Source of the DNA: a virus
Taxonomy: Duplodnaviria; Heunggongvirae; Uroviricota; Caudoviricetes
Reading direction: 5' to 3' (one strand)
IMG/VR virus record: IMGVR_UViG_2645727555_000025
Coordinates: 1-4,454 of that record
Length of the DNA: 4,454 bases
The notes under the pieces were generated by a model. It did no database searches. It saw only the letters and a program-made list of their open reading frames with translations, and was not told where the DNA came from. The position numbers were made by a program, and so were the translations under genes. This document shows, piece by piece, positions 1 through 4,454 of this stretch; within the stretch, counting starts at the first letter, position 1; each line of letters opens with the position of its first letter.

Positions 1-39
1 TTGACGGACTTCAGGGGAAAAACGAGTATTTTTAGTCAT
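1..39 (-). CDS. IS3-family transposase OrfA, N-terminal 13 codons only (partial, runs off window)
   Basis: ATG at complement 39..37 preceded by AAGAGGT; translation MTKNTRFSPEVRQ... matches the remembered N-terminus of IS629-type OrfA. Confidence 0.65.
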   Translation of the reverse strand, partial: MTKNTRFSPEVRQ

Positions 40-68
40 CCTGTTTACCTCTTTCTCAGGAAGTTTAG

Positions 69-93
69 TCTCCAGGATTCCCGGGGCGGTTCA
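69..93 (-). repeat. Terminal inverted repeat (IRL) of the IS3-family element
   Basis: Reverse complement of 69-93 is TGAACCGCCCCGGGAATCCTGGAGA, a 25-bp end beginning with the 5'-TG typical of IS3-family termini. Confidence 0.65.
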
Positions 94-124
94 AGCAGGT
101 GATTTCAGCTCCGCTTTAAATGAG

Positions 125-706
125 TTGGAGTTAGCTCATGAGCCTATAAACGTAATTAAGGCTGAAAGTGTTGAATCTGCCGAAAACGAGCCAGAACAAT
201 TGGGATTTATTGAGGTTGAAGAGTGTGTTGAGGTTAATGATGAATTAAAAGTTCAACAGTCAAATGATAGCAATACAAATAAAAAAGCTCGTACTGCAAG
301 AGGTCCTCGTTTTACTTTAAGTGATAAAGATGATTTGTTTTTCAATAAAGCAGGCTTAGAAAAAGATATTTTCTTAGACGCTTACGAAAACGCGCCTGTC
401 AAAGCAAAGGATAAGATATTAAACCTTCTTAATTGGTTTAGCGGAGGTCCAGATATTAGTGTTTACACGGTAATTTCCATGAGACACCTTCTCACAGAAA
501 AGAAGGCTACAAGTAATAGTATTAAGATTGCTTTAATGAGCAATCCAGAAAAACCGTATCCGCTTAACACTGCGTCAACTCAGGCTGGGCAAATGATGGC
601 TGTATTTCCAGCTACAGGAATTGCTGTTAGAGACGGTGGAAATCTAACATTGAACGAAGAATCACCGATCGTTAAGAAGTTTGTCGCGGAGTACACTATT
701 GGATGA
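125..706 (+). CDS. Hypothetical protein (193 codons from TTG), acidic N-terminal segment; probably the 3' portion of a gene interrupted by the IS insertion
   Basis: Frame is open from nt 5 to stop at 704-706 with no ATG/GTG before 479 and no convincing SD at TTG 125; the IS end lies at nt 93, so the native 5' end is likely displaced. No recognisable motif. Confidence 0.45.
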   Translation: MELAHEPINVIKAESVESAENEPEQLGFIEVEECVEVNDELKVQQSNDSNTNKKARTARGPRFTLSDKDDLFFNKAGLEKDIFLDAYENAPVKAKDKILNLLNWFSGGPDISVYTVISMRHLLTEKKATSNSIKIALMSNPEKPYPLNTASTQAGQMMAVFPATGIAVRDGGNLTLNEESPIVKKFVAEYTIG

Positions 707-746
707 CGTTCCCCTACTGAAAATAAAGCCCATAGAGAGCTTTATA

Positions 747-776
747 GTGCTGGGTAAGCTAACCCATACCCAGCAC
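747..776. other. Stem-loop (10-bp stem GTGCTGGGTA / TACCCAGCAC, 10-nt loop)
   Basis: Perfect inverted repeat 747-756 versus 767-776, read directly. Confidence 0.4.
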
Positions 777-780
777 CACA

Positions 781-828
781 AAAACGCGCCAGAGAGCTTC
801 TTGTTCGCATTTCTGGCGCGTTTTATTT
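781..828. terminator. Bidirectional rho-independent terminator
   Basis: 13-bp perfect stem AAAACGCGCCAGA (781-793) / TCTGGCGCGTTTT (812-824) with GC-rich core, A-tract on the 5' side and TTTTATTT on the 3' side; lies between the ORF at 125-706 and the methyltransferase gene. Confidence 0.6.
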
Positions 829-857
829 GATTGCCATACATAAAATCAAATGCAAAA

Positions 858-877
858 ATAGGTAATCACTTACCTAT
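858..877. promoter_or_regulatory. Inverted repeat ATAGGTAA-TCAC-TTACCTAT just upstream of the methyltransferase start; candidate operator or translation-initiation hairpin
   Basis: 8-bp arms at 858-865 and 870-877, 4-bp spacer, ending 11 nt before ATG 889 and adjacent to the purine-rich RBS region. Confidence 0.3.
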
Positions 878-888
878 CGAGAAAGAAG

Positions 889-1482
889 ATGATTGCAGCC
901 GAAAAAATCAAACAGCGAAAGCGCGACAACTCTCTTCGTGACCTCTGGAGAACACCTGATTGGCTGTTTTCTGCCATTCAACGTTATCTTGGAGTGACAT
1001 TTGATGTTGACGTTGCCTGCAACAAGGACAATGCAAAGCTGCCTATTTTCATAGGCGTTGAGCGCGATGCTTTGAAATCTGAATGGGGGCAGCCAGGTAC
1101 AATTGCCTTCCTCAATCCACCCTACTCCAAAATCTCCCCCTGGATTGATGCGGCTATACGTGAGCAGGCTCGCGGAGTTACAACAGTGATGCTAATTCCT
1201 CAATCCCTCGATACAAAGTGGTATGAGCGTGCAACAGAGTATGCGAATGAGACGATTATTCTGTCTGGTGGCCGCGTTGCGTTTGTCGAGCCTGACGTCA
1301 ATTTGGGTCAGGTAGAAGTAAACATCAACCCCGGTGGCAGTATGCTCGTTGTTTTTCGAGGGTTTTGTCAGGACGCTGGGCACTCTATAAGCAAGATCCC
1401 TTTGGACGTCATGAAAAGTCTGGGAGGGTATGATCCTGCGAATGTGATCAGGAAAAAAAGACCATCAAAGAAGGCTGCTTAG
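889..1482 (+). CDS. Phage-type DNA N6-adenine methyltransferase (Dam family, Pfam PF05869-like), orphan
   Basis: 197 aa; N-terminal WRTPDWLF motif and NPPYS catalytic motif (the D/N-P-P-Y/F motif IV of amino-methyltransferases); purine-rich stretch before ATG 889. Confidence 0.85.
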   Translation: MIAAEKIKQRKRDNSLRDLWRTPDWLFSAIQRYLGVTFDVDVACNKDNAKLPIFIGVERDALKSEWGQPGTIAFLNPPYSKISPWIDAAIREQARGVTTVMLIPQSLDTKWYERATEYANETIILSGGRVAFVEPDVNLGQVEVNINPGGSMLVVFRGFCQDAGHSISKIPLDVMKSLGGYDPANVIRKKRPSKKAA

Positions 1483-1503
1483 TTTGCTCTGGCGTCTGTA
1501 ATT

Positions 1504-1562
1504 AGCCTGCTTCTGTATATATAAATAACTACATATTAATTATTAATATACGGAAGCAGGCT
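1504..1562. repeat. GC-clamped inverted repeat (12-bp arms) enclosing a 35-nt AT-rich palindromic core; candidate terminator or operator/promoter element
   Basis: AGCCTGCTTCTG (1504-1515) pairs with CGGAAGCAGGCT (1551-1562), one G-U equivalent. Core contains the perfect 17-bp palindrome ATATTAAT-T-ATTAATAT (1533-1549). Lies 22 bp after the methyltransferase stop. Confidence 0.45.
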
Positions 1563-1668
1563 GTTTTGTATCAGAGACTCCCAGACCTGAACATCACTAC
1601 AGAATCCACTAGACCCCCTTCCCAGACGCTTTAAAATCGATTTTATGAACCACTTTAAGGAAACCAAC

Positions 1669-1899
1669 ATGTCATACCCGACTAATGTCGTTGCGCTCGT
1701 AGAGAGCGATTTTCTGGCCCAGGCTCGTGAAATGATGAAAGATCGTGAGCAGGCTTTCAACTTGTACGAGTGGGCAATTAAGTGCTTGCATCTTGGCGAG
1801 CATCGCGAACTTGTTGAACAGCTTTTAGGTGAGTTGATCAATGAGGTGTTTGCCTTGAATGTTCAACTACATGGTCGAGAAAATAATCAATCACAATGA
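1669..1899 (+). CDS. Hypothetical small protein (76 aa)
   Basis: ATG 1669 preceded by AAGGA (1657-1661) at 7-nt spacing, preferred over the ORF-track ATG at 1645 which has no SD. Acidic, helix-like composition; no recognised family. Confidence 0.55.
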   Translation: MSYPTNVVALVESDFLAQAREMMKDREQAFNLYEWAIKCLHLGEHRELVEQLLGELINEVFALNVQLHGRENNQSQ

Positions 1900-2319
1900 T
1901 AGATAAGTACAAACTATTCATAAAGTGAATTGTAAGTGCTAAGATCTGATAGTTTCCAGTCGTAGACTGGAGGCTCGACCTGATGGGTGGGGGTAAGCGT
2001 CACTGGCGTCAGGTTTAAAAAAGCTCACTACCAGCGTAGAACCGGTGCCGTATAGGTGTCGGGGAAGGGGGAACCAAAGTGAGCAGAGACAAGGGTCACT
2101 TTATGATTGTCGAGTCTGGGGTGTTTCGAGAGGTTGAATCCAGTACTCCCCTTCATAAAGTGTGGGAAGATCTCGGTTCTGGGGTGCTGTCATCCATAAC
2201 TTCCCAAGTCTAAGCTGGCAGTAGACTTAGACCATAGCTTTTCAGGTTATGAAACGACCAGGTTGGTGAGGAATTTTATACTCACCTCCCTGGGAGAGTA
2301 TTACCTGAAAAGACAACCT

Positions 2320-2357
2320 CTCACTTCGTTCGAGGTGAACTTCACTCACTTCGTTCG
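2320..2357. repeat. Two perfect 13-bp direct repeats CTCACTTCGTTCG (2320-2332 and 2345-2357) flanking the small palindrome GTGAAC-TTCAC
   Basis: Read directly; about 125 bp upstream of the RNase H start codon. Confidence 0.6.
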
Positions 2358-2418
2358 TTCAGTTCAGGTTTATAAAAACCTGTTCTGGGAAGTAATTTGT
2401 TTATTTTAATAATTATTA

Positions 2419-2443
2419 ACACGCACGCGTGTGCGCACGCGCG
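2419..2443. promoter_or_regulatory. 25-nt perfectly alternating purine-pyrimidine tract (ACACGCACGCGTGTGCGCACGCGCG) with nested palindromes, in the RNase H promoter/5' UTR
   Basis: Strict Pu/Py alternation across 2419-2443; palindromes CACGCGTG (2424-2431) and GTGCGCAC (2431-2438); preceded by an AT-rich stretch (2393-2418) and followed by SD AGGAG (2471-2475). Confidence 0.5.
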
Positions 2444-2480
2444 AGGAAAAATCGGCGCGGCGCTTGATTCAGGAGTTTAT

Positions 2481-3071
2481 ATGACGACGAAGACACCAGC
2501 CCGATCGCAAGCAAAAACTCGCAAAAAAGACAAAAACAAAAATTCTCCCCGCACCAATCCCACAACGCCTGTCGTAGAGTTCAATCCCCAGCTTAAAACC
2601 GTGAAAATCTTTAGTGATGGCTCTTGCCTTAAAAATCCGGGTGGCCCGGGCGGTTACGGTATCGTTCTCCAGTATCGTGGTGAGGAACGCGAGTTCTCAG
2701 ATGGTTTTCATAGCACCACCAATAACCGCATGGAGATGATGGGGGCACTTATCGGGCTGGAGCGTTTGAAATATCCATGCAACGTTATTTTGCACTCTGA
2801 TAGCCAGTATCTGAAAAACGGCATGACACAGTGGATGAAATGGTGGAAACGCAATGGATGGATGACTTCTGACAAAAAACCGGTAAAGAATGTTGATCTG
2901 TGGAAGCGTCTGGATGAGGCCGCAAGTCGACATAATGTTCGCTGGAAGTGGGTTAAAGGTCACGCCGGGCATCGTGAAAATGAAATATGTGATCGACTCG
3001 CGAAGATCGCAGCTTTTTCAGCAGCAGATATGCCTCACAAGAAAGATATTGGTTTTGTTTATAACAAATAG
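2481..3071 (+). CDS. Ribonuclease HI homolog (RNase H type 1 fold) with a ~40-aa basic, low-complexity N-terminal extension
   Basis: 196 aa. From residue ~40 it aligns with E. coli RNase HI as I remember it: catalytic D (IFSDGSC), E (NNRMEMM), D (HSDSQY), H (KGHAGH), D (ICDRLA) and the GYG motif are all present. N-terminal 40 residues rich in K/R/T/P. Strong SD AGGAG 5 nt before ATG 2481, preferred over the ORF-track TTG at 2397. Confidence 0.85.
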
Positions 3072-3168
3072 TAAGTAAGTGTTTACCTATCATTTTAAAT
3101 CATGTATCTTATCGGCGTCAGGATGACAATGTGTCGGTAAGACACAGTTCCAGGATGGAACGAGAAAG

Positions 3169-3190
3169 GCGGCTGGCAATCGCCAGCCGC
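3169..3190 (+). terminator. GC-rich hairpin (9-bp stem, 4-nt loop), possible terminator/attenuator after the RNase H gene
   Basis: GCGGCTGGC-AATC-GCCAGCCGC followed by AACTCTTTCT, a weak U-tract. Confidence 0.4.
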
Positions 3191-3219
3191 AACTCTTTCT
3201 GACACTGGATGGAGTCCAC

Positions 3220-3714
3220 ATGGCACGTCAAACCTATTTCACTTCTGTAACTAAACGTCCTCGTTCTTTACGTCAAATTTTGGCCGAATTATTTAGCGGT
3301 CGTGTTATGTCACGTCTTGATGAACTAGAGACTACCGTTCGGTTGCTGAATGAACGTTTAGATAATCAAGCGTCAGTTGTTGCGAACGTGGGGGCGATTG
3401 TTGCCTCTGGTTCTTCACGCGAAGCGAAAAATGCACGGCCTTTAGTGAAGGAGAAAAACAACAAGGACAGTTCGAATGGAAAATTTTCAAAGAAAGAGGC
3501 TGAAACCAATGGCCTACGTTCTCATTATAGTTTCACTGGCGACGGTAGCCGTTCCAGCCGGTCAGAGCCTTTTGATGCCGGATTCATCCATCACCACACC
3601 TTCGTCGACGACAATTACCACCACTCCAGTGGAGCGTCCTGTCACTCTGGATGGGATGGCGGTGGATGCGATACCTCAAGTTCATCCAGTTACTCAGGAT
3701 CATGCTGTGACTAA
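3220..3714 (+). CDS. Hypothetical protein, predicted coiled-coil N-terminal half; C-terminal third is low-complexity (His/Ser/Cys/Gly) and may not be translated as drawn
   Basis: ATG 3220 with GGAG (3211-3214) at 5-nt spacing; first ~85 codons look like genuine coding sequence (amphipathic LDELETTVRLLNERLDN). From ~3480 the +1 frame looks more gene-like than this frame. Confidence 0.4.
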   Translation: MARQTYFTSVTKRPRSLRQILAELFSGRVMSRLDELETTVRLLNERLDNQASVVANVGAIVASGSSREAKNARPLVKEKNNKDSSNGKFSKKEAETNGLRSHYSFTGDGSRSSRSEPFDAGFIHHHTFVDDNYHHSSGASCHSGWDGGGCDTSSSSSYSGSCCD

Positions 3715-3727
3715 GGCGGTTGTATGA
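3476..3727 (+). CDS. Small secreted or membrane-anchored Thr/Pro-rich protein (83 aa) with N-terminal signal-peptide-like segment
   Basis: ATG 3476 preceded by AAGGA (3463-3467); basic n-region MENFQRKRLKP, hydrophobic h-region MAYVLIIVSLATVAV, then PAGQS and a T/S/P-rich region; codon choice looks typical for enterobacterial genes; stop TGA overlaps the next ATG. Confidence 0.5.
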   Translation: MENFQRKRLKPMAYVLIIVSLATVAVPAGQSLLMPDSSITTPSSTTITTTPVERPVTLDGMAVDAIPQVHPVTQDHAVTKAVV

Positions 3728-3912
3728 ACTGGTTTTCAAATCACTTTGGAAAAATTTGGCTGGCAATTCTTGCCCTCATGGCCGCCGGTTGGGTATCGAA
3801 CATTATAAAACTTGTTTGCTCTGGCGATCTCCAGTTTCAGGCTGGCATGACCTTGGCTCGTGTAGTTGGGATTTTTATTTTTCCAGTCGGTTCGGTACTT
3901 GGTTATTTCTGA
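3724..3912 (+). CDS. Small membrane protein (62 aa, two predicted transmembrane helices)
   Basis: ATG 3724 overlaps the upstream stop (ATGA), SD-like AAGGCGG upstream; hydrophobic segments IWLAILALMAAGWV and LARVVGIFIFPVGSVLGYF. Preferred over the W/C-rich ORF at 3720-3950 in another frame. Confidence 0.5.
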   Translation: MNWFSNHFGKIWLAILALMAAGWVSNIIKLVCSGDLQFQAGMTLARVVGIFIFPVGSVLGYF

Positions 3913-3944
3913 CGGTTGTTAGTGCATATGCATTGACCGTCTTT
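3911..3944 (+). terminator. Hairpin (GACGGT / ACCGTC stem around the palindrome TGCATATGCA) followed by CTTT; possible terminator
   Basis: Arms 3911-3916 and 3936-3941; inner palindrome 3923-3932; short T-run 3942-3944. Confidence 0.35.
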
Positions 3945-4005
3945 GCGTAAGCAATTTATTTAACTAGAAAACAACTTGTTTTGACAAATAACAAAAGGAA
4001 AACAC

Positions 4006-4416
4006 ATGTTAGGTTTCTTCAAAAAGAAAACTCGTAAAGCAGTTATCGAAGTCAAAAAAATGGAGAACCGTGATGCGGTTGAGGCCACCGTGTGGGGCGC
4101 GTACATGATCTCCTATGCCGACGGCACATGTGACGCAAAAGAAATTGCCATTCTTGAGAAGACAATTGCAGCTCTGCCTGCGTTTTCTCCGTTTGCTGGT
4201 GAAATTGCCCAAATGAGCGCCAATATCCGTGCTCGTTACGAAGCGTCCCCTCGTTCTGCTAATGCACAGGCTATTCGTGAGCTGTCTGATATTGCTGGTA
4301 CTCCAGAGGCGGTCGATGTTCTGTGTCTGTGCCTTGATATTGCCGATCAGGATGGCATTGGTCGAGTAGGCAGCCTGACGGCTGCGGCTTGTCATGGTCT
4401 GCAATTACCGTTATAA
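4006..4416 (+). CDS. TerB-fold (tellurite-resistance TerB-like) protein, 136 aa
   Basis: SD AAGGA (3995-3999) 6 nt before ATG 4006. N-terminus M-x-x-FF-K and two A-D-G-containing helical segments (YADGTCDAKEIAILEKTI; DIADQDGIGRVGSL) resemble the paired ADG motifs of TerB as I remember them. Confidence 0.7.
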   Translation: MLGFFKKKTRKAVIEVKKMENRDAVEATVWGAYMISYADGTCDAKEIAILEKTIAALPAFSPFAGEIAQMSANIRARYEASPRSANAQAIRELSDIAGTPEAVDVLCLCLDIADQDGIGRVGSLTAAACHGLQLPL

Positions 4417-4454
4417 AAACAGGCAATGTCATTGTCTTTCAGGTGGTTATATGG

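Follow-up and report, generated by a model that had tools for sequence, protein, structure and literature searches.

The immunity RNAs C4 of phages P1 and P7 and CI of phage P4 are made in the lysogen by a plasmid-type or satellite prophage and carry short direct repeats that are complementary to the segment between them. They are 70–80 nucleotides (nt) long, tRNA-like and processed by RNase P, and they lie upstream of an antirepressor operon. In ColE1, the structured pre-primer RNA II is subject to processing by RNase H. Here, we analyzed a pair of perfect 13-nt direct repeats that lie upstream of an RNase H gene (rnhA) in 4,454 nt of DNA from a virus of the class Caudoviricetes (IMG/VR record IMGVR_UViG_2645727555_000025, positions 1 to 4,454; this whole stretch is referred to as the window). 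The window is part of an SSU5-type phage-plasmid: its positions 93–4362 are 99.9% identical to the Escherichia coli plasmid pECOH89, 98% identical to the phages Cyrano and PhiR41_1, and ~77% identical to Salmonella phage SSU5 and Klebsiella phage-plasmids. Our analysis indicates that the 13-mers are probably RNA elements within a structured non-coding RNA of ~440 nt, which would have its own sigma-70-type promoter and be a fixed gene of SSU5-type phage-plasmids.

The order of repeat 1, spacer and repeat 2 echoes the repeat-segment-repeat layout of C4 and CI. However, the RNA proposed here is about 6 times larger, has no match to the C4 model of Rfam and is not followed by an antirepressor in the window; moreover, its complementary segment comprises only 6–8 nt and is located in a local hairpin. 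GOLLD, ROOL, OLE and raiA resemble it in being several hundred nt long, with many covarying helices and invariant unpaired stretches, as well as in being carried by mobile elements or prophages and having functions that cannot be deduced from context. In contrast to these RNAs, the present one is smaller (~440 nt), belongs to a single family of Enterobacteriaceae phage-plasmids, is unusually conserved at the nucleotide level and lacks an Rfam match. A ToxI-like type III toxin-antitoxin RNA and a CRISPR mini-array (tandem repeats of ~28–37 nt beside a toxin or cas gene, or with spacers of ~32 nt) were considered and rejected, as the window has 2 repeats of 13 nt with a spacer of 12 nt; a repeat scan of the window revealed no larger repeat family in this region, and the neighbors are rnhA and a gene for a protein of 76 amino acids (aa).

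The repeat sequence, CTCACTTCGTTCG, occurs exactly twice, at 2320–2332 and 2345–2357 of the + strand. The copies are spaced by 25 nt (start to start), enclosing the 12-nt spacer AGGTGAACTTCA, and a small palindrome (GTGAAcTTCAC, 2335–2345) is found between them. An earlier note on this DNA had described the perfect repeats, their 25-bp distance and the palindrome, all of which were confirmed, and its placement of the pair upstream of an RNase H gene is right for this window: the repeats sit within a 580-nt gap between the 76-aa gene and rnhA (PF00075, E = 1e-44), with 124 nt separating repeat 2 from the ATG of the latter (2481). No further match to the 13-mer was found in the window with up to 2 mismatches; in 200 shuffles, matches averaged 0.10 and a count of 2 was seen once. 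Exact 13-mer direct repeats 13–50 nt apart were obtained in 0 of 1000 first-order Markov simulations of the window, and therefore the pair is real and non-random. When any distance was allowed, 158 of 1000 simulations contained such a repeat, and a second, distant pair of exact 13-mers in the window (1482/3814) is at chance level. Hence, it is the closeness of the pair, not the repetition itself, that exceeds chance. The same note had suggested searching the genome for additional copies; none was found in the 111.7-kb pECOH89 at up to 1 mismatch, and at up to 2 mismatches there was 1 match compared to 1.65 expected.

The repeats are part of a conserved block (approximately 1952–2396, + strand) inside the 580-nt gap. 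The core of this block (1973–2396) shows 95.0% identity to SSU5, 90.3% to pJN2-26 and 89.0% to L072, whereas the same comparisons gave 43–54% for third codon positions and 75–96% for first and second positions of the 76-aa gene, rnhA and the Dam-type methylase gene dam. Judged by these identities, purifying selection on the block equals in strength that on first and second codon positions. It was found in 687 of 72,556 PLSDB plasmids, from Klebsiella, Escherichia, Enterobacter, Salmonella, Citrobacter, Cronobacter and other genera, in 12 phage records, and in 4.3% of complete E. coli genomes (232 of 5426), almost always on plasmids. In the complete E. coli genomes examined, the RefSeq annotation is empty at its position. 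The chromosomes of complete E. coli genomes yielded no partial homologues, and nhmmer searches revealed none beside distant RNase H genes (45–49% identity). A 17-mer scan of 185,579 species genomes returned 27 matches, mostly by chance, with true copies only in Kluyvera and Buttiauxella, and a metagenome scan as well as a three-block pattern scan recovered the same family only. The copy in Buttiauxella gaviniae (L096, 4777–5170) is chromosomal and lacks the 5′ third of the RNA, and an in-frame fusion joins it to the end of a 387-aa gene; it looks like the decaying remnant of a recombination event. Within the searchable literature, we found no description of an RNA at this locus; a preprint on phage-plasmid copy number concerns a different family.

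The features assigned to the element are as follows.

1917–1945, + strand: putative sigma-70 promoter with −35 TTCATA (1917–1922), 17-nt spacer, extended −10 TG (1937–1938) and −10 TAAGAT (1940–1945)
1953–1973, + strand: predicted 5′ terminal hairpin CCAGUC-GUA-GACUGG, a hairpin in all lineages though of wholly different sequence
1973–2396, + strand: multi-helix conserved core of the predicted non-coding RNA, supported by conservation, covariation and fold z-score
2079–2213, + strand: spurious 44-aa open reading frame (ORF) inside the RNA, corresponding to CYRAN_81, a "hypothetical protein" of phage Cyrano
2169–2184, + strand: GAUCUCGGUUCUGGGG, invariant between lineages, mostly unpaired in the predicted structure and located between its helices 12 and 13
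2215–2220, + strand: CUGGCA, an invariant hairpin tip, with inner pairs at 2215–2217 and GCA in the loop
2315–2334, + strand: repeat-1 block AACCUCUCACUUCGUUCGAG (AACCUCUCACUYCGUUCGAG), which includes repeat 1 (2320–2332)
2327–2357, + strand: predicted hairpin B, formed by CGUUCGAGGUGA (2327–2338, end of repeat 1 plus spacer) and UCACUUCGUUCG (2346–2357, repeat 2), with the loop ACUUCAC
2358–2395, + strand: predicted terminal hairpin CAGGUUU..AAACCUG (2365–2382) with outer UUCAG/CUGGG extension and the conserved end UUCUGGGAAGUAA
2396–2418, + strand: A+T/U-rich spacer, variable between lineages in length and sequence, a possible weak terminator tail
2419–2451, no strand: alternating purine-pyrimidine (CA/CG)n tract (2419–2443), AGG and an A-run (2447–2451)

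Covariation supports a folded + strand RNA. For 33 variants, RNAalifold predicted 127 pairs, almost none of which is broken and 9 of which show compensatory double changes; among 90 distinct close variants, 99.8% of cells are paired, compared to 38–48% when the 3′ partners are slid. Divergent homologues were reached via the linked 76-aa protein (L243–L245 and L247 [64%, 61% protein identity], L246, and later L318), and a lineage alignment was built from 8 lineage representatives; L321 was set aside as a low-quality contig. With the divergent homologues included, 35 of 107 predicted pairs show compensatory double changes (1–4 in slid controls), and 97.3% of cells are paired (32–47% when slid). 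The covariation score of 0.382 contrasts with values of at most 0.093 for slid partners and was reached by 0 of 500 shuffles. As an example, the helix UGGGAAG (2163–2169)/CUUCCCA (2200–2206) is replaced by AGGAAGG/CCUUCCU in a divergent lineage, corresponding to 3 double changes, and several other helices have been rebuilt likewise. Furthermore, many invariant G-U pairs and AU-to-GU exchanges were found; as the complementary strand would have A-C mismatches at these sites, the RNA is assigned to the + strand. The predicted fold energy is −170.7 kcal/mol for the + strand (z = −4.9) and −138.9 kcal/mol for the − strand (z = −4.1). Taken from the alignments, the helices covary and the block is non-coding, the latter because 1- and 2-nt indels shift its reading frames and no protein family is matched.

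Individual helices follow the same pattern. The 5′ hairpin reads CCGGA..UCCGG in SSU5 and UUUCGA..UCGAAA in Klebsiella types, and helix 2 contains 2 pairs with double changes. Helix 14, which bears the CUGGCA tip, has 5 pairs with double changes, while the 6 bases of the tip are invariant. Few parts of the 8-lineage alignment stay invariant over as many columns as GAUCUCGGUUCUGGGG, which is flanked by the paired G2169 and by GGG 2182–2184, which open the next hairpin. In the stem of the terminal hairpin, covariation is seen as an exchange of UA for GC in 9 of 33 sequences; in divergent lineages this hairpin is shortened or rearranged, with AAAYCC..UUCUGGG being kept. An alternative helix suggested by RNAalifold on close variants, CUUCCCA (2200–2206)/UGGGAAG (2386–2392), was rejected, as the divergent lineage keeps the 5′ partner via 3 double changes but loses the 3′ one. 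Searches against the 4227 models of Rfam 15 (C4, RNAI, Sok, 6S, tmRNA, RNase P, group I and II introns, GOLLD, ROOL and OLE among them) with the whole window and with a 541-nt region (E ≤ 10) gave no match; the best scores in the RNA region, 15–21 bits, belong to unrelated eukaryotic, viral and Streptococcus models and are far under the gathering scores. A scan for tRNA and tmRNA was also negative.

Within this structure, the 2 repeats behave differently. Repeat 1 together with its 5′ flank is one of 3 stretches that are invariant between the aligned lineages, and 18 of the 20 positions of the repeat-1 block are invariant in all of them, including the divergent L243, L246, L247 and L318. The consensus structure revealed no conserved partner for repeat 1 within the molecule; the single pairing that it shows for this repeat, with the promoter sequence, was dismissed as spurious since the promoter is not transcribed. 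Repeat 2 is predicted to pair in hairpin B, with pair probabilities of 0.94–0.99 in local and full-length folds of the window and an energy of −11.6 kcal/mol for the hairpin alone. The mutually exclusive hairpin A, in which the spacer pairs with repeat 1, amounts to −8.2 kcal/mol. When full-length conformers were forced, energies were −164.1 versus −167.6 kcal/mol for the window (3.5 apart) and −162.4 versus −161.9 kcal/mol for SSU5 (0.5 apart), hairpin A being the minimum-energy choice in the latter. Both 13-mers are invariant in 90 of 90 distinct main-lineage variants, the sole change seen being a C to T in repeat 2 of the truncated Buttiauxella relic. In the divergent lineages, repeat 2 is replaced (L246, …GAGAGCUUCGCUUCGCUCAGCUCUUC…), rearranged (L243, CUCAC-A-UUCGUUCG located 21 nt downstream, plus a third CUCACUUC) or diverged (L318, CUCACAUCUGUUCG). 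Nevertheless, a hairpin of lineage-specific sequence directly follows repeat 1 on the 3′ side in every lineage. Hairpin A was tried as a conserved feature and discarded, as it cannot form in L243.

The 5′ boundary of the RNA is suggested by the putative promoter. A TAnnAT hexamer occupies the same alignment column in 8 of 8 lineage representatives (TAAGAT, TAAAAT, TAGAAT, TAAAAT, TAACAT), mostly with the extended TG, and is followed ~7 nt later by the hairpin of lineage-specific sequence, which would place the RNA start near 1952. In SSU5, 1 copy of an 18-bp palindrome (TAGGTAAGTnnTTACCTA) lies directly upstream of this promoter, and its counterpart in the window is degenerate (1902–1916). At the other end, CGCGCGAGRAAA is kept in all lineages, whereas the length of the (CA/CG)n tract varies.

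Published transcriptome data from a Cyrano lysogen of E. coli LF82 list CYRAN_81 at 12× the local prophage background, a value calculated per coding sequence, taken here irrespective of strand, that spans 135 nt only, and a putative repressor at 10×; CYRAN_80 and rnhA (CYRAN_82) are absent from the genes listed at at least 5× background (PMC9928086, Table 1). A separate transcript made in the plasmid state fits these data, and the RNA is probably made in this lysogenic state. The 44-aa ORF that gave rise to the CYRAN_81 annotation (2620–2754 of the Cyrano locus, overlapping the RNA) has no family in Pfam or PHROG, and 1- and 2-nt indels between lineages fall within the candidate ORFs, this one included. 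In SSU5, the "RNase H" SSU5_090 (L002, 4965–5729; 254 aa) has in its annotation an N-terminal extension overlapping the 3′ portion of the element.

While the RNA is closely linked to the 76-aa gene, the same is not true for rnhA. At 72 of 72 IMG/VR loci encoding the 76-aa protein, the RNA is found 62–66 nt downstream. The protein family is narrow (29 clusters); an AlphaFold2 (AF2) model predicts 3 helices (pLDDT 80), for which no fold match, Rop-like folds included, was found in the PDB. The 76-aa protein is a possible partner of the RNA. In one further lineage (L319), where the 76-aa gene is 70% identical, the gap from this gene to an RNase H gene is occupied by an unrelated non-coding sequence of ~700 nt (1726–2438). 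Neither nhmmer nor Rfam gave a match for this sequence, its fold is predicted at −226 kcal/mol, and it could be an analogous, non-homologous element.

On the 3′ side, we compared the downstream slots of L111, L150, L165, L166, L169 and L243. In a Kluyvera-type lineage without rnhA (8 distinct variants), homology stops right after the A-run at 2447–2451 and is followed by a conserved 35-nt linker, variable cargo and then the next conserved gene. The cargo comprises the PADLOC candidates HEC-06 (E = 2e-215) and HEC-08 (E = 6e-146), a type IV restriction-like HNH protein (E = 6e-22), a lipoprotein, or 2 opposite-strand genes without assignment. In the L243 lineage, the slot contains a DUF7557-like gene and then a Tad2-like anti-Thoeris gene. 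A closely related rnhA (89% identity) is present in another phage without the RNA. Because the RNA persists with other cargo and a related rnhA occurs without it, the RNA is, by this comparison of loci, independent of rnhA. The slot after the (CA/CG)n tract and A-run looks like a site for defense and anti-defense cargo with a possible recombination boundary.

Based on these findings, we propose that a stand-alone + strand RNA (~1952–2396) carries the repeats in its 3′ domain. Repeat 1 would serve as an exposed recognition motif for a partner acting in trans, either a protein, perhaps the linked 76-aa protein, or another nucleic acid. Repeat 2, which exists as a repeat in the dominant lineage only, would contribute the 3′ arm of the hairpin just downstream of repeat 1, pairing with the last 6 nt of repeat 1 and the spacer. 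Since repeat 2 copies repeat 1, the spacer AGGUGA would be able to pair with either copy, and since the resulting conformers are predicted to lie within 0.5–3.5 kcal/mol of each other, the duplication in the main lineage may constitute a switch between two states, with the repeat-1 motif exposed in one and sequestered in the other.

Several observations weigh against this proposal. The 3′ domain is rich in CUCAC/GUGAG-type complementarity, leading to several competing pairings, and the divergent lineages add few independent events. The helix of hairpin B is constant within the main lineage, where covariation consequently speaks neither for nor against it, and the hairpin following repeat 1 in divergent lineages can be drawn in more than 1 register. 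As hairpin A cannot form in L243, a switch between A and B is not family-wide. No partner or target was found, with antisense targets within the plasmid being limited to chance matches of 11–12 nt, and no canonical terminator was called after the core, so that read-through into the downstream genes is possible. The restricted nature of the LF82 value belongs here as well.

The element might instead be a long cis-acting leader (an attenuator, antiterminator or stabilizer) for whichever gene fills the downstream slot, with repeats and spacer forming switch hairpins. This would agree with the lack of a canonical terminator between the core and rnhA, with the first cargo gene being co-oriented with the RNA for 4 of the 5 kinds of cargo in the lineage without rnhA, with the need for defense genes to be expressed in the lysogen, where the RNA promoter appears to be active, and with hairpins A and B being mutually exclusive and near in energy. 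We nevertheless regard it as unlikely: the adjacent cargo genes in L111 lie on the opposite strand, rnhA did not reach 5× background while the RNA region reached 12×, hairpin A is lost in the L243 lineage, and neither hairpin is followed by a U-run as expected for a terminator/antiterminator pair. Moreover, 300 nt of near-invariant sequence far exceed the needs of known attenuators. A leader or riboswitch dedicated to rnhA is additionally contradicted by the downstream gene, which is not constant but depends on the lineage (rnhA, HEC-06, HEC-08, a type IV restriction endonuclease-like gene, opposite-strand genes, or DUF7557 plus Tad2-like genes).

The earlier note had favored an iteron-like protein-binding DNA site controlling rnhA, and on this view the repeats would be bound by protein as duplex DNA, being iterons or operators that belong to a lytic origin or to an rnhA promoter. 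Like iterons, they are perfect short direct repeats in a neighborhood of replication and nucleotide-metabolism genes; an A+T-rich stretch follows ~40 nt later along with a GC-rich tract, and both copies are invariant in the main lineage. However, iterons comprise at least 3 copies of 17–22 bp in helical phase, whereas the window has only 2 copies of 13 bp which, 25 bp (~2.4 turns) apart, are on different faces of the helix. Iterons also adjoin their cognate rep gene and often have extra copies at other sites that serve copy-number control; here, there are no other copies in the 111.7 kb, the RepB-family initiator gene (pECOH89 101–1315) is ~16 kb away, and ~300 surrounding nt are equally invariant, which argues against special conservation of the repeats. 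Repeat 2 is dispensable in 3 lineages, the element is unchanged where other genes replace rnhA, and the compensatory changes and G-U asymmetry indicate a folded + strand, in which the repeats are embedded. Binding sites of this kind are thus highly improbable, and control of rnhA found no support. The other suggestion of the note, processing or pairing sites in an RNA, fared better in substance, as covariation supports the RNA structure whose 3′ domain contains the repeats, and repeat 2 pairs with the spacer (P ~0.99 in the window fold). With regard to homologous loci, the outcome is split: repeat 1 is kept in every lineage and both copies in the main one, whereas 3 divergent lineages no longer have repeat 2 in the form of a repeat. 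Marginally less credible still is a pre-primer resembling ColE1 RNA II, that is, a G-rich structured transcript that would form an R-loop at the downstream junction of A+T-rich and GC-rich sequence and, once cleaved by the neighboring phage RNase HI, prime replication. Its length (~450–530 nt) and strong structure are comparable to the ~500-nt RNA II, G-runs occur in the RNA (e.g., GGGGAAGGGGG at 2061–2071), an A+T-rich stretch and A-run lie downstream, and in the main lineage the RNase HI gene is next door. Yet, the RNA is kept in lineages without adjacent rnhA, the plasmid has its RepB-family initiator elsewhere, and the phage has its own primase and helicase. An RNA I-type antisense promoter over the 5′ end is lacking, the only nearby minus-strand promoter-like site (1958 to 1929) pointing away; the 76-aa protein has neither a Rop-like nor another known fold, and there is no similarity to plasmid RNA families in Rfam. 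Least probable of all is that the region codes for small proteins (the 44-aa ORF, or a 48-aa ORF at 2263–2409) and that the repeats are coding sequence. Although these ORFs exist, one is annotated in Cyrano and the region is transcribed, both frames are shifted by the indels between lineages, and no protein family is matched; the repeat copies, 25 nt apart, fall in different frames, and substitutions are paired across helices without codon periodicity.

The genes surrounding the RNA in the window are all located on the + strand.

125–706, + strand: truncated phrog_5235 gene, identified by profile match
889–1482, + strand: Dam-type methylase gene (dam)
1669–1899, + strand: gene of the 76-aa helical protein (phrog_5343), directly upstream of the RNA
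2481–3071, + strand: rnhA (RNase HI, PF00075), neighbor of the RNA in this lineage only and outside the element
Downstream of rnhA, + strand: 2 small genes of no assigned role, followed by a TerB-like gene

Besides the primase and helicase, the phage carries its own DnaE and ligase. Positions 1–93 of the window are 100% identical to ends of IS3-family (IS629-type) insertion sequences known in Stx phages, and this end truncates the phrog_5235 gene, as ORF 125–706 matches only positions 78–274 of the 274-position profile. Homology to pECOH89 also ends near 4362, within the TerB-like gene. The 18-bp palindrome TAGGTAAGTnnTTACCTA recurs intergenically in the window, at 859–876, between a promoter-like site and the dam start codon, and at 3072–3089, just past rnhA (0.01 matches expected by chance); SSU5 (L002) has copies at 3470–3487, 4528–4545 and 5723–5740. 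It resembles an operator for a dimeric regulator. Downstream of dam, an inverted repeat with 17-nt arms (94% complementary) and an A+T-rich loop spans 1504–1562, and downstream of the first ORF another one with perfect 13-nt arms (781–824) is followed by TTTT; both are probably transcription terminators that separate units. Between 3116 and 3190, 2 hairpins present GGA in their loops (GUCAGGAUGAC and GUUCCAGGAUGGAAC), with a weak match to CsrB (E = 0.12). After them comes a GC-rich terminator-like hairpin (3169–3190), and GGA is also found in the Shine-Dalgarno region of the next gene. These hairpins may be CsrA-type binding sites or a small RNA. Finally, in the region 3220–3727, nt 242–456 of a 164-aa ORF show higher conservation at third codon positions (86%) than at first and second ones (71–77%), which suggests that selection acts there on the frame of the overlapping 83-aa ORF at 3476–3727 (MENFQRKRLKPMAY…), whose N-terminus is hydrophobic.

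Returning to the repeats, they are better treated as RNA, with respect to folding and partners, than as DNA operators of rnhA. In clinical Enterobacteriaceae, phage-plasmids of the SSU5 type are common, and they spread resistance genes, with pECOH89 carrying CTX-M-15. The block ranks with the most strongly constrained sequences of this genome part, yet it is annotated as protein in 2 phage records. More tentatively, and with considerable doubt, it may represent a new class of large lysogen RNA that acts with the 76-aa protein via invariant single-stranded motifs, the repeat-1 block included, either in phage-host or phage-phage conflict or as an expression and recombination platform bordering the defense/anti-defense slot, with the repeat duplication as a switch in the dominant lineage. 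If it is a functional RNA, it would open a new family of large RNAs to structural and functional work, allow a simple correction of the annotation, and likely offer a handle on the maintenance or conflict biology of phage-plasmids.

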